A stretch of DNA of 64,000 nucleotides from an uncultured Gammaproteobacteria bacterium (GTDB taxonomy: Bacteria > Patescibacteriota > Microgenomatia > UBA12405 > JAHJSD01). Positions 3,755-64,000 of the stretch are shown here, in pieces. The stretch's first letter is position 1, and each line of letters begins with the position of its first letter. The position numbers and the translations under genes are program-made. The DNA is taken from NCBI GenBank assembly GCA_964498425.1, contig CAZCGQ010000004.1, forward strand, positions 24,210-88,209, written 5' to 3'. Below the pieces are notes generated by a model, which ran no database searches, was not told the DNA's origin, and worked only from the letters and a program-made list of their open reading frames with translations.

Positions 3755-4480
3755 ATGGATTTAAAGGAAATCGCCATTAAAGGAACCAGTCAAGATCATT
3801 TGCCGATTGAGGATATTCAAAACAATTTGGTTATTCTCAAAGACGGAACAACAGTGATGATTGTTAAAACATCATCAGTCAACTTTGATCTACTTTCTGA
3901 AAAAGAACAAGACGCAATGATTTATGCCTACGCCGCTATGCTTAATTCCCTGACCTACCCAATAGAAATTATTGTCAGATCAACCGCCAAGGATGTTTCT
4001 AACTATTTAAAAAGAATAAAAAAGCAGGGTACTAAAATCAGCAACCCCCTGCTGAAAAAACAAATACAATCCTATCACGACTTCGTTGAGGAAGTAGTGG
4101 AAAAAAACAATGTTCTAGCTAAAACATTTTATATTGCTGTTCCCTTTTACCCGGCGGAGATGGGAACAGCGGCGGCCGCCCATTCATCAGTACCCGGATT
4201 TCTGTCATTTCTTAAAAAGGAAAAGAAAACTTTGCCAATGAGTAAAGAAAAAATCGTTGAAAAAGCCAATGCCGCCTTGGAACCAAAGCTGGAACACCTG
4301 ACCCGGCTTTTTGGCCGACTGGGCTTAACCGTAAAGCAATTGGAAACTAAAGAGCTTATCCGCTTATTTTATAAAATTTACAACCCAGAATCGTCTTTGG
4401 GAGAAAATATCGAAGCCTTAAATCAACAAGGTGTAATGATTCATGGACCAAAACAAGATGTTCAACAAAATACTCAATAA
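3755..4480 (+). CDS. VirB4-like ATPase N-terminal domain, encoded as a separate ORF (split from the ATPase core)
   Basis: 241-aa ORF whose last 38 nt overlap the start of the VirB4-like ATPase in another frame. Domain identity is inferred from position. Confidence 0.4.
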   Translation: MDLKEIAIKGTSQDHLPIEDIQNNLVILKDGTTVMIVKTSSVNFDLLSEKEQDAMIYAYAAMLNSLTYPIEIIVRSTAKDVSNYLKRIKKQGTKISNPLLKKQIQSYHDFVEEVVEKNNVLAKTFYIAVPFYPAEMGTAAAAHSSVPGFLSFLKKEKKTLPMSKEKIVEKANAALEPKLEHLTRLFGRLGLTVKQLETKELIRLFYKIYNPESSLGENIEALNQQGVMIHGPKQDVQQNTQ

Positions 4481-17341: not shown

Positions 17342-17694
17342 GGGGATGTAATAGATTCGACGGAAAAAGCACGTTTAAAAACAGCAAGCTCTCTTTGGTA
17401 AAAGAGGTTAAACAGACCAAAACAAAACATGCCGAATCAAACTTTGGCACTCCGGCATACGCTTTTGCGTAATCTCGGAGCATCTGCTTGTTTCTTGTCT
17501 AGGGAAACAGGTTAGGTGACAACTTGCTAGACTTTTTCTTTTTAAATTGGCCGACTAAAGAGAAGAAAATTAGGCCAGTGCTAATTGCAGTTTTGAATAT
17601 TGTCTAACAATTAGCCGTAACTAAAATATTCTAAGCTTGTAGACGTTTTTATCGTATTTTTCTGGACCCGCGGTCACTCCGCGGCATCTCCACC
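17342..17694 (+). ncRNA. ssrA: tmRNA (transfer-messenger RNA)
   Basis: 5' GGGGATGTAATAGATTCGACGG matches the conserved tmRNA 5' acceptor/D-analogue (compare E. coli GGGGCUGAUUCUGGAUUCGACGGG). The 3' end GGAC-CCGCG-GTCACTC-CGCGG-CATCTCC-ACC forms a T-arm plus a 7-bp acceptor stem complementary to the 5' GGGGATG (one G-U). The internal tag frame ends ...PAYAFA-TAA at 17470. Immediately downstream of smpB. Confidence 0.65.
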
Positions 17695-17768
17695 GAGCGG
17701 AGTATTTCCTCGGACGGTGTTCCGAAGGAATTCCTCCGAGGTGGTACGAAGCGGAAGGTATAAAAACT

Positions 17769-22463: not shown

Positions 22464-23073
22464 TTGCACTTTAACAAGTTATTGATGACGTAATATACCG
22501 TGCATCACATGTGTGTCTTTGACACACGTATTTCTCATGTGCTTTTTGCACATGAAATTAACCGTGTACCCTTTGTGGTACGCGGCCGGAACCCGCCTTT
22601 ATGGCGGGACACAATAATTCTAGTATTAAGGCAAAAGGTGGATACCTAGGTGGCAAGAGCCGAAGAAGGACGTGGTAGGCAGCGAAATATGTCGGGAAGG
22701 TGCCAAACAACCTTTGATCCGGCAGTGTCCGAATGGGGTAACCCACTCCTGTGTAAGCAGGAGGACTCCAACTTTAGTTGGAGAGGTAAGCTGGGGAACT
22801 GAAACATCTTATTACCCAGAGGAAAATAAAATTTCAATGATTCCCTTAGTAGCGGTGAGCGAAAAGGGATTAGCCCAAAGGTCGATTCGTCGACCGGTTG
22901 CAGGGTCCAGCCAAAAAATAATTCTAGCTAGCGGAAAACTTCGGAATAAGTTTCCAGAGAGGGTGAAAGGCCCGTACGCGAAAGCGCGAATTATTTAGGC
23001 GGATTCCTAAGTAGCTCCGACATAATCGGGGTGAATCAGGGGGAACCACTCCTCCAAGGCTAAATACTCTTGC

Positions 23074-23120
<47 letters not shown>

Positions 23121-24599
23121 GGGAGGGGAGTGAAATAGTATCTTGAAACCATTTGCTAACAAACAGAGAGAGTTCCGACCTTGTGTCGAGAATGATCTCG
23201 TGCTTTTTGGAGAACGAGCCGGCGAGTTTTCGTTGACTGCAGGTTTAACCGAGTCTGACTCGGGTAAGCGGAGGGAAACCAAGTTTGAATAGAGCGATAA
23301 GCAGTTAGCGTAAGACCCGAAACCGAGTGATCTAACCATGGGCAGGGTGATCTCTGACGAAAGTCAGGGGGAAGGCCGAACCAGTAGGGGATGCAAACCC
23401 TTTGGATGACCTGTGGTTCGTAGCAATATGCTAATCGTACTCGGAGATAGCTGGCTCTCCCCGAAATATATTTAGGTATAGCGTTCTATTGTCTCTTTCA
23501 GGGGTAAAGCCACTGGATGGGCGCAGGGTAGAAATACCTTGTGCTCAACCAAACTCTGAATACTGGAAGATTAAGTAGAACAAGTCGGTCTGATCGGGCT
23601 AAGCTGATCAGGCGAAAGGGAAAGAACCCAGACTCCCGTATAAGGTCCCTAAGTGTTTGCTAAGTGGCAAAGGAAGTGATTCGCCACAGACAGCCAGGAG
23701 GTTGGCCTAGAAGCAGCCATCCTTTAAAGAAAGCGTAACAGCTCACTGGTCGATGGCGAGTCGCGCCTAAAATTTAACGGGGCTAAGCAAACCACCGAAG
23801 ACGGAGTTCTGTACCATTTGGTGCAGGAGGTAGGGGAGCGTTCCCAGGGCGGTGAAGTCAAATCGTAAGGTTTGGTGGAGCGCTGGGAAGTGAGAATGCC
23901 GGCATAAGTAACTAGAATTCTGGTGAGAATCCGGAACGCCGAAAGCCTAAGGTTTCCAACGCAATGTTCGTCAGCGTTGGGTTAGGCGGGGCCTAACCCG
24001 AGTCCGTCAATTGACGGAGTAGGGGATGGACAGTCAGTTAATATTCTGACCCCACGGCTGTTTCGTTTTACTTAGGGAGTGACGCATTAGGATAAATCGG
24101 GTGGAGTAGTGAAATTGCTCCATTGATCAACCGAGTTAGTTTCAGCAGGCAAATCCGTTGAAATGTTTAAGGCAAGGTTGAACAGAACCCTGACCTTCGG
24201 GTCGTGGGAACTTGATCGATTTCTGATGCCGAGAAAAGCTTCGTAAGGAGAAACAGTTGTGCCCGTACCGCACAACCGACACAGGTAGGCAGGTCGAGTA
24301 GACCAAGGCGCGCGGGAAAAGGGAGGTTAAGGAACTCGGCAAAAAAGCTAGGCGTAACTTTGGGAGATGCCTTCCCTCGAGTTTTCGAGGGCACAGCTAA
24401 CGAGTGTTCGGCGACTGTTTACCAAAAACACAGGTCTCTGCAAACCCGTAAGGGGAAGTATAGGGGCTGAAGCCTGTCCAGTGCCGGAAGGTTAAGGGGA
24501 GTTGTTCGGTCGATTTTTCGACCGGGCGGCGAACTGAAGCCCCGGTGAACGACGGCGGTAACTCTAACCGTCCGAAGGTAGCGAAGTCCATTGTCGGGT

Positions 24600-25304
24600 A
24601 AGTTGGAACGAGCCCGTATTGGCTAATAACGGAAAAGCCCTAATTTAGGTTCAATGGCAACCGTTTTAGGATTAGGGTAATTGCGTGGGAAGTCCCGCAT
24701 CTGCGGGACCCCGTAACGACTTTTTTCGATTTTAATCGAAAAGGATAGATTTTGTGCCTATTTCAAGCTATGCTTAAGTTAGGCAAATCATGAAATCTAT
24801 AACACGCCAGTCACTGCTACAACAGGAATTGAATCCCAATTGGATTACTGGCTTAGTTGATGGTGAAGGATCATTTATGGTTCTTTTTAATCCAAATTCT
24901 AAGTTTAATACCAACTGGGAAGTCCGACCGAGTTTTGCTCTCTCCTTGAAAAAAGCGGATAAAAGTATTCTTTTAAGTTTAAAAGAATATTTTAAGTGTG
25001 GAAGTGTGCGTTTTTGTAAAACTGACTCTACTTACAAGTATGAGGTTAGAAGTTTACAAGATTTGCACTCTAGAGTAATACCACATTTTGATAAATATCC
25101 CCTTTTAATAAAGAGGAAAGAGTTCTTGGTTTTTAGGAAAGTTGTTTTTCTGATGAAGGCTAAAAAGCATTTAATGCCAGATGGTCTGAAAGAAATCTCA
25201 AGATTAGTTGGTTCAATTAATCGCGGGAGGGATAAGAAAAACTTTCCATCGTTGTAATTGGTGAAAGAGATAGTCTGCACCATTGGTAACAATGGAGGTT
25301 TGTG
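24600..25304 (+). mobile_element. Group I intron in 23S rRNA domain IV (insertion site equivalent to about E. coli position 1951) carrying a LAGLIDADG homing-endonuclease ORF
   Basis: Exon junction GUCGGGU|AAGUUCCGACC is restored when 24600-25304 is removed. The 5' exon ends in U and the intron ends in G (group I rule). Its 705-nt length accounts for the oversized 23S. The position was counted from the A2058 region by hand. Confidence 0.6.
24790..25257 (+). CDS. LAGLIDADG-family homing endonuclease (intron-encoded)
   Basis: NWITGLVDGEGSF motif at the N-terminus. 155 aa. Located entirely inside the 23S rRNA intron. Confidence 0.75.
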   Translation: MKSITRQSLLQQELNPNWITGLVDGEGSFMVLFNPNSKFNTNWEVRPSFALSLKKADKSILLSLKEYFKCGSVRFCKTDSTYKYEVRSLQDLHSRVIPHFDKYPLLIKRKEFLVFRKVVFLMKAKKHLMPDGLKEISRLVGSINRGRDKKNFPSL

Positions 25305-26383
25305 AAGTTCCGACCGGTATGAACGGCTTAACGACCGAACAACTGTCTACGACCTCTCACCCGGTGAAATTGAAATACCGGTAAAGATGCCGGTTAGTGA
25401 CGGCAGGACAGAAAGACCCCGTGGAGCTTAACTGAGGCTTAACGTTGGGAAAAATACTTTAATTGTTGAGAATAGGTGGGAGCCTTCGGGCGCCAGTGAA
25501 ATACCACTCTTTGAGGTATTGGACTCTAACCAATGTTCACTGCAAACGTGAACTGGGACGGCGTTTGGTTGTCAGTTTGACTGGGGCAGTCGTCTGCTAA
25601 AAAGTAACGCGGACGTACAAAGGTTGGCTTGGTCCGGCTAGAAATCGGACTGTAAGTATAAAGGCAAAAGCCAGCTTAACTGCGAGACCGACGGGTCGAG
25701 CTTGCAAAGCCACAAATATTTTGTTTGTGGGGATGCAACCGTGTACCTTTGGTACATGGAGGTGCGAAAGCAGGTCTTAATGATCTTCCGTCCCTTGTGG
25801 ATAGGGGCGGGACTTAACGGATAAAAGCTACCCCGGGGATAACAGCGTGGTCGGGCCCGATAGTCCATATTGACGGCTCGGATCGCGACCTCGATGTCGA
25901 CTTGGCGCATCCTGGCCCTGAAGAGGGGGCCAAGGGTTGGTCTGTTCGCCCATTAAAGCGCTGCGTTAGTTGGGTTCAGAACGTCGTAAGACAGTTCGGT
26001 CCATATCCGCCGTCACCGCACGATTTTTGAGAGGAGCTCACTACAGTACGAGAGGACCTAGTGGGAGGAACCTCTGGTGTGCCTGTTGTTCTGTCAAGAG
26101 CATTGCAGGGTAGCCATGTTCCTTCGGGATAACCGCTGAAAGCATCTCAAGCGGGAAGCCCACCTCAAGATAAGAAATCGATGACCGATTTATCGGTCTG
26201 AAGGCCTCCAGGAGACTACTGGTTATAGGTAGGAGGTGGAAGACCAGCAATGGTTTAAGCTGACCTATTCTTATTGGCCGACCTAGAATTTATTTTACAT
26301 CCGGTGCCACGTACCATTCGGTGCATGGCTAGCGTGATGCACTGTATACTATGTCATCAATACTTGTTGAGAGACAAGAAAAT

Positions 26384-60621: not shown

Positions 60622-61359
60622 GTGTTAAAATATGTCATGGCAGATATTTATAAGCCTGAGCCGCCACCCTCACGAGTTGAAGAAGAGGAAGAAACCCCTA
60701 AGGTTGACAAATCCAAGCCCAAAAAGAAAAAAAGAAAAGCGGATGAAACGAAGAGCTCGAAAACTCCCCGTGATAAAGTTTACCAAATTGTAGGGACAAG
60801 TTACAATCCTTTATCCTCCTTTGTTGCCCGACCAAAACATACTAATTTTGAAACACAATATGACGGTGAAGAAGTAATTTTGCTTCTCCGTCGGCACGTT
60901 ATTACTAATGTCGGTTGGATGATTATGTCTTTTCTCTTGATTTTTGTTCCTTTATTAGTAACCAATTTTCCCTTAATTAGTTTTTTACCGTCCCGATTTC
61001 AATTTGTTTTTTTACTGATGTGGTATTTGTTTGTTTTTGCCTATACTTTAGAAAGCTTTCTTTCCTGGTATTTTAATGTTTACATTATTACTGATGAGAG
61101 AATTGTTGATGTTGATTTTTACAATTTAGCTTACAAAGAAATTTCGGACGCGGAGATAGAAAACATTGAAGATGTAACCCTGGTTATGGGTGGGGCGATT
61201 CAAACAATTTTTAATTATGGTAACGTAAGGATACAAACGGCTGGTCAAGTTCCAGAATTCTGCTTCGAGTTAGTTCCACAGCCCTCCAAAATCGTTGATA
61301 TTTTAAAGCAATTACAGTTAGAAGAGAAGCAGGAAGAGCTTGAAGGGAGAGTAATGTAA
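60622..61359 (+). CDS. Membrane protein with bacterial PH-like (YdbS/bPH_2-like) C-terminal domain
   Basis: K/E-rich N-terminus, two TM helices (MIMSFLLIFVPLLVTNFPLISF, FVFLLMWYLFVFAYTL), then ITDERIVDVDFYNLAYKEISDAEIENIEDV. Confidence 0.3.
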   Translation: MLKYVMADIYKPEPPPSRVEEEEETPKVDKSKPKKKKRKADETKSSKTPRDKVYQIVGTSYNPLSSFVARPKHTNFETQYDGEEVILLLRRHVITNVGWMIMSFLLIFVPLLVTNFPLISFLPSRFQFVFLLMWYLFVFAYTLESFLSWYFNVYIITDERIVDVDFYNLAYKEISDAEIENIEDVTLVMGGAIQTIFNYGNVRIQTAGQVPEFCFELVPQPSKIVDILKQLQLEEKQEELEGRVM

Positions 61360-61501: not shown

Positions 61502-61732
61502 ATGAACGCTTTCATTGAATTTGTAACTGGTGTTTCTATTTGGCAGGTGGCTAAGATATTTGTTTTAGTTGCTTTAGTTATTTATGCTATTTTTGCCTGG
61601 GTAGTTGTTCGACAGGTGAATTTAATGACAAGGGTAGTTTCGGGAGAATTAGACCTGCCAATCAAGATTATTTCTTGGCTGCACTTTTTCTTTTCCATTT
61701 TCATTATCTTCCTCGCCTTTGTTGTCCTATAA
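61502..61732 (+). CDS. Small hydrophobic membrane protein
   Basis: 76 aa with two predicted TM helices. Confidence 0.3.
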   Translation: MNAFIEFVTGVSIWQVAKIFVLVALVIYAIFAWVVVRQVNLMTRVVSGELDLPIKIISWLHFFFSIFIIFLAFVVL

Positions 61733-61772: not shown

Positions 61773-63560
61773 TTAGGTTTTCTTTAGGTCTTCTAAAGAA
61801 AGGTTGTAGTCGTGGGAAAATTGTTCCCATTGACAGCGGCATTTTCCGGATAGGTGGACGGTATCTGGAACTAGCTTTTTATTTTCTAGGTGAGCCTGCC
61901 AAATTTTCAATCGTTCTTTTTTTCCATCAATTTTTACTTTGGTGTAAGCTCCTGGCCAGGGGTTAAAAGCCCGTACTTGGTTGACAATTTCTTCAGCCGG
62001 TTGAGCCCAATTAATTTCCGCTTCATCTTTTTTAATTTTACTAGCGTAGGTAGCCTCCTTTTCACTTTGAGGGTCCATAACCCAGAATTGAGGCTGATTG
62101 GTTTGATAGAGGTCGGAGAAAATTGGAACGATTTTTTGGGCAGCTGACTGAAATAACCGGTTTGTTAATTGTCCGGCGGTTTCATCAGACTTAACTGATG
62201 TTTTTTCTTGGGTAATTATTGGGCCGGCATCCATTGCTTCAACAAGTTTGAAAATCGTCCAGCCGGTTTCTTTTTCACCGGCTTCAATCGTTCTAATTGT
62301 TGGAGCGGCTCCACGCCATTTGGGCAAAAGTGAGGGGTGAATGTTTAAAAGTATATTAAACCAATTTAACCATGATTTGGGAATTATATTTCCATAGACG
62401 GCAACGATACCCCAATGAGGCTTATATTTAAGTTTTCTTTCCACTTTTTGGCGGGTTTTGTAGCTAAGCTTTTCCAATTTAAAAGTTGTTAGATTTTGTT
62501 TCTTGGCGAATTGGCCGAGTGGGCATGCTTTGACTTTTTGGCCGCGGCCGCATTGACGGTCGGGTTTAGTAATTACTGCTCCGACAGGGATATCCGCTTT
62601 CAATAATTCTTTTAAAATTAAGACGGATTCCGCACTTGAACCGAAAAATAATAACGGTTGTTTGAAAACATCTTGCTTGTGGGGCGGAGTATGTTTAAGA
62701 ATGAGGTGCTTGGTGTTAGTGGTTAGCGATTGGTCGATATTTTTACCGCGTATTAAGGCAGTTGGACCAATAAAATTAGCTGGGTAAACAATTTTGTCAC
62801 TGGGTTGAGCCAGTTCTTCTAGCCGTTTGTTTTCGTCTTCATCCTTACCAATAATTACCAAACGATCACCTTGCCAAAAATGTCGGCCGACTTTTAATAA
62901 TTTTGCATCATCAACATGCAAATTAGAGAAGTGATCTTTAAGGTCAAACACTTTTTCTCCAAATCCCTTTTCAGTCAGCATGCATCCACCAGCCGGTTGT
63001 TGATAGGAAAGATTAGCCTTATTTGCTAAATCAATTTGAGTTTTTCTGCTTCTGCCGCTGATGCCAAAAAGTTCTTCTCGGTTAAGCCAGCCTTTTTTTT
63101 CAGGACCGGTTGGCTCCAATTTTTGGGCAGACAACGGGCGGACAAGAAGCTCATTTAGTCCGGATTTAGTAGCTAAAAGTTCCATTGCCTCTTTGTTTTG
63201 GGAGAACGGTCGTTGACCGATAACTTCACCGGTAGCAACAAAATTAAAGTTTTCCTTGTCAAGAATTTCTTTGGACTTTTTAAGCATAATCAGGTGGCAG
63301 TCGATGCAGGGGTTAGCTGCTCCGCCAAAGCCGTGTTCCGGACTTTCAATCGCTTCCAACAGTTCTTTAGAAATATCAATAACCTCGTAAGGAATATTTA
63401 GTTGTTTTGCCGCCTGGACACCACGTTGGGAATCAAAGAAGACACTTTCAAAAATTAGGCCTTTTATCTCAATCCCTTGCTGCCTAATTAACCAAGCAGC
63501 TAGAACCGAATCCAAGCCACCTGAAATTAAAACCAAAGCTTTAATGTCTTTTTTCTTCAT
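61773..63560 (-). CDS. fmt: Fusion protein: N-terminal PP-loop ATP pyrophosphatase domain (SGGxDS; QueC/ThiI/LarE-like) joined to a complete methionyl-tRNA formyltransferase
   Basis: N-terminus ALVLISGGLDSVLAAW (PP-loop) with Cys motifs PCIDCH and GGCM. C-terminal half carries the Fmt signature HPSLLPKWRGAAPI and the Fmt C-terminal domain. Continuous 595-aa ORF. Confidence 0.6.
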   Translation of the reverse strand: MKKKDIKALVLISGGLDSVLAAWLIRQQGIEIKGLIFESVFFDSQRGVQAAKQLNIPYEVIDISKELLEAIESPEHGFGGAANPCIDCHLIMLKKSKEILDKENFNFVATGEVIGQRPFSQNKEAMELLATKSGLNELLVRPLSAQKLEPTGPEKKGWLNREELFGISGRSRKTQIDLANKANLSYQQPAGGCMLTEKGFGEKVFDLKDHFSNLHVDDAKLLKVGRHFWQGDRLVIIGKDEDENKRLEELAQPSDKIVYPANFIGPTALIRGKNIDQSLTTNTKHLILKHTPPHKQDVFKQPLLFFGSSAESVLILKELLKADIPVGAVITKPDRQCGRGQKVKACPLGQFAKKQNLTTFKLEKLSYKTRQKVERKLKYKPHWGIVAVYGNIIPKSWLNWFNILLNIHPSLLPKWRGAAPTIRTIEAGEKETGWTIFKLVEAMDAGPIITQEKTSVKSDETAGQLTNRLFQSAAQKIVPIFSDLYQTNQPQFWVMDPQSEKEATYASKIKKDEAEINWAQPAEEIVNQVRAFNPWPGAYTKVKIDGKKERLKIWQAHLENKKLVPDTVHLSGKCRCQWEQFSHDYNLSLEDLKKT

Positions 63561-63593
63561 ACCTGGATTATATCATCCGGAAGTAGACGGAAG

Positions 63594-63670
63594 TGGTGGC
63601 AGGGAAGGGAGTCGAACCCTTGACCTCCGGGTTATGATTCCGACGCTCTAACCAACTGAGCTACCCTGCC
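63594..63670 (-). tRNA. tRNA-Met (anticodon CAT; elongator Met or Ile2 type)
   Basis: The reverse complement folds as GGCAGGG-TA-GCTC..GAGC-..loop ATCATAA..-T arm GGTTCGA(C)TCC-CCCTGCC-A-CCA. The CCA is encoded. Confidence 0.75.
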
Positions 63671-63676
63671 TGAGTC

Positions 63677-63753
63677 TGGTGGACCCGAGCGGATTCGAAC
63701 CGCTGACCTTCCGAATGCAAATCGGATGCTCTAGCCAACTGAGCCACGGGCCC
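63677..63753 (-). tRNA. tRNA-Ala (anticodon TGC)
   Basis: Reverse complement GGGCCCGTGGCTCAGTTGGCTAGAGCATCCGATTTGCATTCGGAAGGTCAGCGGTTCGAATCCGCTCGGGTCCACCA. Anticodon loop TTTGCAT. G3:U70 is absent, but the anticodon is unambiguous. Confidence 0.75.
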
Positions 63754-63764
63754 TTAGGGGAAAT

Positions 63765-63837
63765 TGGTTGCGGGGCCAGGAGTCGAACCTGGTCTGTGAG
63801 GTTATGGGCCTCACGTGCTGCCGTACACTACCCCGCG
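63765..63837 (-). tRNA. Initiator tRNA-fMet (anticodon CAT, C1:A72 mismatch)
   Basis: Reverse complement CGCGGGG...CCCATAA...TTCGACT...CCCCGCAACCA closely parallels the E. coli tRNA-fMet ends (CGCGGGG / CCCCGCAACCA), including the C1-A72 mismatch. Confidence 0.7.
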
Positions 63838-64000
63838 CTAGTAGAGTTATTATACGTTTTATACCTAAGCGATGTCAAATTAACTAACTTTCTGCGAAGA
63901 AGAGGTCCCACCACTGTTTCCAGGCCGGTGAATTGGGAGATATTTTTCTTCCCTGGTGCTTATTCGGCAAATCCGGCAGTTCTGGAAGAACCAAAACAAG

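Follow-up and report, generated by a model that had tools for sequence, protein, structure and literature searches.

The ThiI+DUF814 family of PP-loop ATPases was defined by Burroughs and Aravind (2014; PMC4075521) as ThiI-like proteins with a CxxC motif and an internal cysteine, an enlarged lid that bears GRxRxxQ as well as TxxE motifs, and a C-terminal DUF814/NFACT-R domain, but without THUMP or rhodanese domains. The family shows near-exclusive phyletic complementarity with the THUMP-containing canonical ThiI, and from this a role as an alternative synthase of 4-thiouridine at tRNA position 8 (s4U8) was predicted; a neighbourhood with TusA (and IscS/IscU) is frequent, but not universal (PMC4075521). 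In archaeal U8 sulfurases that lack a rhodanese domain, a CXXC + C set of cysteines holds the catalytic [4Fe-4S] cluster (PMC9825150). Here we describe a gene in which a member of the ThiI+DUF814 family is joined to a methionyl-tRNA formyltransferase (Fmt). It lies on contig CAZCGQ010000004.1 of assembly GCA_964498425.1, in a stretch of 64,000 nucleotides (nt) that is referred to below as the window.

The gene is a single uninterrupted open reading frame (ORF) of 595 amino acids, running from ATG to stop on the minus strand (Table 1). A sequence-only reading of the window had recognized this ORF without giving its strand. The product consists of three parts, a ThiI-like PP-loop domain, an NFACT-R_2 RNA-binding domain, and a complete Fmt. 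On balance we favour the view, with rather more confidence than doubt, that it is a bifunctional tRNA enzyme, composed of an intact housekeeping Fmt and an intact Fe-S-type ThiI-like thiolase that stem from a former operon. The C-terminal 293 residues would then act as the Fmt of the organism and transfer formyl from 10-formyl-tetrahydrofolate to Met-tRNAfMet, with loop 1 (PDRxxGRG) reading the C1xA72 mismatch and with Asn406, His408, and Asp444 as catalytic residues. The PP-loop domain would use ATP to adenylate a tRNA uridine, whereupon sulfur supplied by a [4Fe-4S] cluster on Cys85, Cys88, and Cys193 would replace the activated oxygen, while NFACT-R_2 would bind the tRNA, a task that falls to THUMP in canonical ThiI. 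We predict that 4-thiouridine is formed in this way at position 8. Each of the two modules would work independently, the neighbours in a thiI-like/def/fmt operon having probably been joined by a linker of 9-12 residues into one compact protein.

Domains and motifs of the fusion protein

Judged from its sequence the Fmt half is complete, with two domains, the catalytic Asn/His/Asp, and the loop that recognizes the initiator tRNA. Pfam matches Formyl_trans_N (PF00551) to residues 307-474 (7.7e-32) and Formyl_trans_C (PF02911) to residues 508-562 (6.4e-16), the latter with positions 1-51 of the 100 in the model aligned. With TIGR00460, the fmt equivalog of NCBIfam, the protein reaches 205.3 bits, the cut-off being 201.5, and the best solved-structure matches of the fusion are Fmt proteins, down to 2e-42. 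The proposal that a PP-loop ATPase domain is joined to a complete Fmt is borne out. N406, H408, and D444 align with the catalytic N108, H110, and D146 of Escherichia coli Fmt (1FMT); among 26 fused orthologues H408 and D444 never vary, and conservation of N406 is 90% or more. The sequence-only reading had the Fmt motif end in API, whereas it reads HPSLLPKWRGAAPT.

The loop 1 insertion of the PDRPAGRG type, which with its Arg42 equivalent sets Fmt apart from other formyltransferases, is present as well. G338-R339 in TKPDRQCGRGQK align with G41-R42 of the E. coli loop, and G338, R339, and G340 are invariant in the fused orthologues. In the 2FMT complex loop 1 reportedly wedges into the acceptor helix and splits the C1xA72 mismatch, and Fmt is said to bind the inner face of the tRNA L, on the side of the D-stem and close to U8. 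Our structural model superposes on the Fmt structures 4iqf and 2fmt over the whole Fmt length (TM-score ~0.8, Foldseek), and the strands of the C-terminal domain are modelled at residues 539-570. Among stand-alone Fmt proteins the nearest, which carries the label Gottesmanbacteria, has about 41% identity. A second Fmt was found neither in the 64-kb window nor within 10 kb of any fused locus.

Residues 1-290 are, on sequence grounds, a member of the ThiI+DUF814 (NFACT-R_2) family. They had been described earlier as an N-terminal PP-loop domain of QueC/ThiI/LarE-like type; the sulfurtransferase character of this assignment holds, but the module belongs to a family that was already defined, and its NFACT-R_2 domain had been overlooked. 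Pfam places tRNA_Me_trans at residues 8-117, ThiI at residues 7-143, and NFACT-R_2 (PF18297) at residues 225-280, the last with 28.7 bits against a cut-off of 26.9. An assignment of the PP-loop subfamily by hidden Markov model (HMM) had been suggested; when the family profile is compared with solved structures, Bacillus anthracis ThiI (2c5s) comes first (4.9e-11), followed by MnmA and Thermotoga maritima ThiI (1e-7), and profile positions 232-309 match the NFACT-R domain of RqcH (7aqc 456-535) with 1.4e-6.

The motifs of the family are all in place. SGGLDS (S13-S18) shows no variation among 67 members of the family or among the 26 fused orthologues, and the same is true of C85, C88, and C193. 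R170, R172, and Q175 of the GRxRxxQ motif are invariant across the 67 members, and so is E154 of the TxxE motif, which here reads T151-G-P-E154. In the NFACT-R_2 domain Arg226 is invariant, and position 239 is a lysine in the window protein and an arginine in most members. By analogy with the archaeal sulfurases, the three cysteines may hold the same [4Fe-4S] cofactor. An AlphaFold model of the N-terminal module alone reaches a mean predicted local distance difference test score (pLDDT) of 94.6.

Membership in the better-known neighbouring families is contradicted by several results. The PP-loop begins at residue 7, Pfam and NCBIfam give no match to a THUMP or rhodanese domain anywhere in the fusion protein, and with the ThiI model TIGR00342 the score is 32.8 bits, where 264.5 would be required. 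Only residues 8-128 align with MnmA, whose models TIGR00420 and PRK00143 score 31 against 237 and 33.5 against 284 bits, and only the NFACT-R segment matches the NFACT proteins RqcH and NEMF. There is no solved structure of the ThiI+NFACT-R family. Elsewhere the ThiI+NFACT-R module occurs fused to an N-terminal HAD hydrolase (P0039, P0040, P0044, P0246, and P0271), and also to a C-terminal PAP2 phosphatase (P0253), a protein kinase (P0085), and VanZ (P0095); none of these partners is obviously related to tRNA.

The thiolase and Fmt halves meet at about residues 295-302 (~62655-62690), in agreement with the junction near 62680 that had been given before. The linker here is 9-12 residues long in all orthologues, with a mean identity of 36%. 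Pairwise comparison of the 26 aligned orthologues gives mean identities of 64% in the PP-loop domain, 54% in NFACT-R, and 55% in Fmt. Since the domains are thus 54-64% identical against 36% for the linker, and since family-invariant and catalytic residues are kept, the sequences indicate purifying selection on both halves. An AlphaFold2 model of the fusion, built with a 121-sequence alignment, covers all 595 residues with a mean pLDDT of 96.8 and a predicted TM-score (pTM) of 0.91. Such a pTM for a protein of three modules implies, as far as the model goes, that their mutual arrangement is confidently fixed, and this agrees with the short and length-constrained linker.

A number of findings weigh against the bifunctional reading. 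For the Fmt half, the cut-off of TIGR00460 is passed only marginally, and the C-terminal tRNA-binding domain is about 30 amino acids shorter than that of E. coli. The N-terminal module might accordingly be a catalytically dead accessory that binds tRNA and compensates for the trimmed domain, an idea to which the RNA-binding NFACT-R would lend itself. We regard it as very improbable. All catalytic and family-invariant PP-loop residues are kept in all orthologues, the PP-loop domain is the most conserved part of the protein, and stand-alone Fmt proteins of the Candidate Phyla Radiation (CPR), 273-297 amino acids long, manage with similarly short C-terminal domains.

For the thiolase half, a single-sequence HMM scores MnmA slightly above ThiI, and by Foldseek the N-terminal module is about equally similar to MnmA, the [4Fe-4S] enzyme LarE, TtuA, and ThiI, none of them close (E ~1e-7, TM-score 0.35-0.6). 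Pfam reveals no TusA/IscS relay gene among the genes called around the fused loci or at 41-60 kb of the window. An experimental paper on the ThiI+NFACT-R family was not found in the searchable literature, and the s4U8 assignment is a prediction resting on a prediction. The module could instead carry out a different PP-loop reaction, at another tRNA position or as an adenylation-dependent substitution on a tRNA or a small molecule. In favour of this are the uncharacterized state of the family, the even spread of HMM and fold likeness over MnmA, ThiI, TtuA, and LarE, the GRxRxxQ and TxxE motifs that are unique to the family and sit in its enlarged active-site lid, and the hydrolase, PAP2, VanZ, and kinase partners of the module in other proteins. 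We nevertheless give it a low probability, as ThiI ranks first in the profile search, the CxxC + C pattern is specific to enzymes of the ThiI/TtuI type, the NFACT-R domain favours an RNA substrate, and the family and THUMP-containing ThiI are nearly exclusive in their distribution (PMC4075521).

A high pTM and a constrained linker length suggest a fixed geometry, which would be needless if the modules were merely co-expressed, and the modelled arrangement hints at coupling rather than independent action. The protein would then be a coupled maturation enzyme for initiator tRNA, in which the grip of Fmt on the acceptor end and C1xA72 of tRNAfMet gives the thiolase its specificity. A single binding event might lead to thiolation near the junction of acceptor and D-stem as well as to formylation, or one step might gate the other. 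The contact that Fmt reportedly makes near U8 would fit this. Both enzymes are, on the other hand, thought to need the acceptor stem, so that steric hindrance may prevent them from acting on one tRNA at the same time. Taking this together with the genomic evidence given below, we consider coupling unlikely, and bifunctionality with two independently acting modules remains the reading we prefer.

Recurrence, distribution and origin of the fusion

A joined gene of this kind could arise from an assembly or frameshift artefact that connects two adjacent genes, and a few relatives are indeed split (L008 and L093 by frameshifts, L006 by being shortened at an apparent contig chimera). When 5.8 billion proteins were searched by word index, an identical protein was retrieved together with about 25 more clusters that share the full-length architecture and are 50-73% identical. 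The distinct full-length fused orthologues number at least 26 and come from assemblies at four sources (NCBI, JGI, ENA, and Logan) made with different assemblers; the independent Logan assembly of SRR15425351 codes for the identical protein. When one genome per species was scanned in GTDB, the uninterrupted fusion was found in 11 species representatives (L009-L019), so the search for the fusion in related genomes that had been proposed was successful. The reading frame is continuous across the junction in the alignment of the 26 full-length orthologues, and no junction stop occurs in any frame-consistent orthologue aligned. With the same open frame recurring down to 50% identity, the artefact has next to no probability and is effectively refuted.

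The close relatives P0127, P0027, P0019, and P0030 were considered as stand-alone genes, which would make the fusion optional. This was rejected, as no inspected copy is truly stand-alone. P0127 begins at a contig end and P0027 is the L006 chimera, while P0030 (on a 1.7-kb contig) and P0019 (on a 3.4-kb contig) are probably cut by contig ends in the same way. P0031, encoded at L008, is a syntenic fused gene with one frameshift. The frameshifts lie at ~3242 in the Fmt part of L008 and at ~3790-3860 in the PP-loop part of L093. In L006 unrelated sequence (1-690) is joined inside NFACT-R, an apparent contig chimera or a rearrangement. A selenocysteine or recoded stop in L006 was also considered and rejected; the in-frame stop is a TAA codon, with unrelated sequence upstream.

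The distribution is narrow. An exhaustive HMMER search with a profile of the fused protein against 1.84 billion representatives clustered at 50% identity gave one representative only, P0018, that spans both halves. All other strong matches are the N-terminal module alone or Fmt alone, save for P0344, which matched in two stretches; it was considered as a second type of fusion and rejected, being a duplicated Fmt. Because a single cluster at 50% identity holds both halves, the fusion marks one narrow clade of uncultured Patescibacteria (CPR) and is most simply explained by one evolutionary event. Many of the records of metagenome-assembled genomes concerned (L009-L016, L018, and L020-L024) are titled "uncultured Gammaproteobacteria", "Pseudomonadales" or "archaeon" despite a locus of Patescibacteria type. 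These TPA_asm titles look like placeholders or wrong taxonomic labels, and we take "Gammaproteobacteria" as a mislabel since the gene content equals that of loci titled Patescibacteria.

The fused loci are syntenic over about 20 kb, with genes for a 7TM-transglutaminase, a XerC-like integrase, DivIC, the tRNA trio, the fusion, DUF5657, a membrane protein of ~240 amino acids, FtsH, and SpoIID, and the downstream genes in the window are the same as in the other loci. The two membrane protein genes, which in the window code for the 76-amino-acid DUF5657 protein (61502-61732, plus strand) and the ~240-amino-acid protein (60622-61359, plus strand), are convergent to the fusion gene and stand between it and ftsH in every fused locus. 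In several of them the distance to the XerC-like integrase gene is about 1-1.5 kb.

The module is not fused to Fmt in 69 GTDB loci, and in 68 of these fmt is absent from the surrounding 10 kb. The sole exception, L020, is among the closest unfused relatives (N-terminal module 57% identical) and contains consecutive, co-directional genes for a ThiI-like protein (322 amino acids), Def (182 amino acids, with EGCLS and HELDH motifs), and Fmt (244 amino acids), with fmt overlapping def by 4 nt. A scan of metagenomes added L095, which is the same sequence as L020, and L140, a second organism with the same gene order and a Def 75% identical, where the contig breaks off inside fmt and shows only the beginning of that gene (1319-1403). 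As two related organisms thus carry thiI-like, def, and fmt as adjacent genes, the data suggest as the simplest history that an operon came first and later collapsed into the fusion. A thiI-like gene inside a def-fmt operon in two relatives would also suit a coupled enzyme; that fmt lies nearby in only one of the 69 unfused loci speaks against it.

The PDRPAGRG segment of E. coli Fmt recognizes the initiator acceptor stem. The operon-type Fmt (L020 11315-12049, identical in L095; L140 1319-1403), which is 244 amino acids long, is without this loop 1 segment.

A paper describing a ThiI-like/Fmt fusion was not found in the searchable literature, so the sequence-only reading's impression that the fusion was undescribed has held up. 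The word "formyl" does not occur in the paper that defined the family, and a fusion to Fmt is not mentioned there (PMC4075521). Fused proteins are already present in public databases under the name Fmt. The domain architecture is apparently new, with both component families known.

tRNA genes, promoters and other features of the window

Three tRNA genes lie upstream (5') of the ORF, all on the minus strand like the ORF itself. The gene had been placed immediately upstream of the initiator tRNA-fMet gene, but this is the reverse of the actual order: the ORF is downstream of the trio. To judge from its G1:C72 pair, the CAU tRNA that adjoins the ORF is of elongator type, and the C1xA72 mismatch marks the farthest of the three as the initiator.

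Table 1. Positions of the fusion gene, its domains and motifs, and the adjoining tRNA genes and promoters in the window.
Feature	Position	Strand	Basis or remark
Whole fusion ORF	61773..63560	-	595 amino acids + stop; identical protein is P0001 (public collection) and Logan contig L001
PP-loop ATPase catalytic domain, sulfurtransferase group, ThiI-like	62916..63560	-	Residues 1-215; Pfam ThiI and tRNA_Me_trans
NFACT-R_2 (DUF814-type) RNA-binding domain	62691..62915	-	Residues 216-290; Pfam PF18297
Short, Lys-rich, poorly conserved linker	62655..62690	-	Residues 291-302
Fmt N-terminal (formyltransferase) domain	62091..62654	-	Residues 303-490; Formyl_trans_N, Foldseek
Fmt inter-domain linker (KIKKDE) and shortened C-terminal beta-barrel tRNA-binding domain	61773..62090	-	Residues 491-595 + stop; Formyl_trans_C
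PP-loop motif SGGLDS, ATP pyrophosphatase signature	63507..63524	-	Residues 13-18
CIDC (Cys85-x-x-Cys88), predicted [4Fe-4S] ligand pair of CxxC + C	63297..63308	-	Motif meaning from PMC9825150, PMC4075521
GRSRKTQ, family-specific GRxRxxQ in the active-site lid	63036..63056	-	Residues 169-175; motif per PMC4075521
Cys193 in QPAGGCMLTE, third Cys of CxxC + C, putative ThiI-type catalytic Cys	62982..62984	-	Sequence conservation
PDRQCGRGQK, Fmt loop 1	62535..62564	-	Residues 333-342; alignment to 1FMT
NIHPSLLPKWRGAAP, predicted catalytic Asn406 and His408, folate-binding SLLP motif	62301..62345	-	Residues 406-420; 1FMT alignment
Asp444, predicted catalytic Asp (E. coli D146)	62229..62231	-	1FMT alignment; invariant
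Sigma-70 consensus promoter TTGACA-18-TATAAT of the tRNA cluster	63849..63878	-	12 of 12 positions match
Initiator tRNA-fMet (CAU), C1xA72 mismatch, G30:C40 and G31:C39; presumed substrate of the Fmt module	63765..63837	-	tRNA scan
tRNA-Ala (UGC)	63677..63753	-	tRNA scan
tRNA (CAU), G1:C72, elongator Met or Ile2	63594..63670	-	33 nt upstream of the ORF ATG
TGATATAAT, extended -10 promoter element of the fusion ORF	63567..63575	-	6 nt before the ATG; read from sequence

The initiator tRNA gene is found about 50-250 nt from the fusion gene in most fused loci, in either orientation, which would suit a coupled enzyme. As functional evidence this adjacency had to be downgraded, since the whole region of about 20 kb is syntenic, several relatives have the tRNA block in inverted orientation, and the fusion gene has a promoter of its own; tRNA-fMet is next to the gene in none of 60 scanned loci with stand-alone members of the family. 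Compared with the window, L002, L011, and L014, the trio is inverted, wholly or partly, in L003, L005, L008, L010, L012, L015, and L018, and an extra ORF is placed between it and the fusion gene in L005 (peptidase M3) and L003 (647 amino acids). The most novel form of coupling would be a machine dedicated to initiator tRNA, where Fmt recognition of C1xA72 would replace THUMP and where U8 thiolation, or another PP-loop modification, would be mechanistically coupled to formylation. This we hold to be unlikely.

The initiator tRNA is nearly identical in 11 fused loci. It is so in L002, L003, L005, L008, L010-L013, L015, and L018 though the fusion proteins are only 50-70% identical. It has C33 in place of the almost universal U33, as well as U11:A24, and A29:U41 replaces the first of the three G:C pairs of the anticodon stem.

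The promoter of the tRNA cluster lies 12 nt upstream of the initiator tRNA, and its pattern TTGAC(A/T)...TA(T/A)AAT is kept in most fused loci. The extended -10 element of the fusion gene recurs as TGnTATAAT in L010, L011, L012, L013, and L015, some of which have an inverted tRNA block. That the gene must be co-transcribed with the tRNA cluster had first been deduced, as the gap measures 33 nt and a promoter with two hexamers is lacking, but this was withdrawn because of the conserved element before the ATG; co-transcription is possible in the window, but not required. As the -10 element lies 6 nt from the ATG, the mRNA of the fusion gene is probably leaderless.

A TAnAAT hexamer, often TG-extended, precedes the start of about 25 long ORFs in the window by 5-7 nt, where about five would be expected by chance; examples are the starts at 1703 (-), 12404 (+), 31306 (-), 42943 (+), 50098 (-), 60637 (+), and 63560 (-). 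With so many ORFs sharing it, this layout is a habit of the genome and not peculiar to the fusion gene, and the organism appears to make wide use of extended -10 promoters and leaderless mRNAs.

Other RNA genes in the window include a 23S rRNA match at 22616-26292 (+), which spans 3677 nt against a model of 2925 nt and therefore contains one or more insertions of about 750 nt in all. A LAGLIDADG gene is present in the related locus L005. For 16S and 5S genes, nothing in the window attains the Rfam threshold. A tmRNA gene at 17342-17695 (+) scores 80 bits with Rfam, but is missing from the ARAGORN results for the whole window.

Meaning and comparison with known systems

The fusion serves as a "Rosetta stone" that physically ties the orphan ThiI+NFACT-R family to a bona fide tRNA enzyme, and the two relatives with the operon tie the family to def and fmt as well. 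Action of the family on tRNA is thereby made likelier, and the initiator tRNA becomes the first candidate substrate. Should the two activities be coupled after all, this would give the first functional handle on an uncharacterized family that is widespread in anaerobic bacteria; we know of no earlier example of a tRNA modification wired to formylation. The predicted protein is compact and well ordered, and it would offer a convenient single polypeptide for Fe-S-dependent thiolation without THUMP. It also adds to the unusual arrangements of translation-related genes in the reduced genomes of Patescibacteria.

Compared with Fmt as known from E. coli (1FMT and 2FMT) and from TIGR00460, the fusion protein shares the two-domain fold, the catalytic Asn/His/Asp, SLLP, loop 1, and the basic inter-domain linker. 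It differs by its N-terminal extension of 300 residues with the ThiI-like and NFACT-R domains, and its gene is not beside def, as fmt is in many bacteria. The stand-alone ThiI+DUF814 members (PMC4075521) are 40-56% identical to the N-terminal module and have the same SGGxDS, CxxC + Cys, GRxRxxQ, and TxxE motifs and the same NFACT-R_2 domain, but lack the C-terminal Fmt. In the fusion protein the linker takes the place of their last ~30 residues, the second conserved arginine is Lys239, and no TusA/IscS neighbour is seen.

Methanococcus maripaludis TtuI/ThiI (PMC9825150) likewise has a rhodanese-less PP-loop domain with CXXC + C, which in MmTtuI binds the catalytic cluster, and by analogy the chemistry is predicted to be the same, with adenylation first and then a transfer of sulfur from a sulfide bound to the cluster. 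The similarity is limited to the PP-loop core; the ferredoxin-like and THUMP domains of MmTtuI are absent from the fusion protein, which has NFACT-R_2 instead. With RqcH and NEMF it has only the NFACT-R domain in common (profile match to RqcH residues 456-535), and NFACT-N, HhH, and coiled-coil are missing. NFACT-R_2 is without the DxxxH motif of the NFACT proteins (PMC4075521), and the fusion protein is not a ribosome quality-control factor.

Formyl_trans_N/C domains joined to a second catalytic module are also found in ArnA, 10-formyl-tetrahydrofolate dehydrogenase, and the F-domain of LgrA, which were seen among the sequence and fold matches. There the formyltransferase acts on sugars, folate, and peptides, and its partner belongs to the same pathway. 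In contrast to these, the protein described here contains a bona fide tRNA Fmt, and its partner is a predicted tRNA-modification enzyme.

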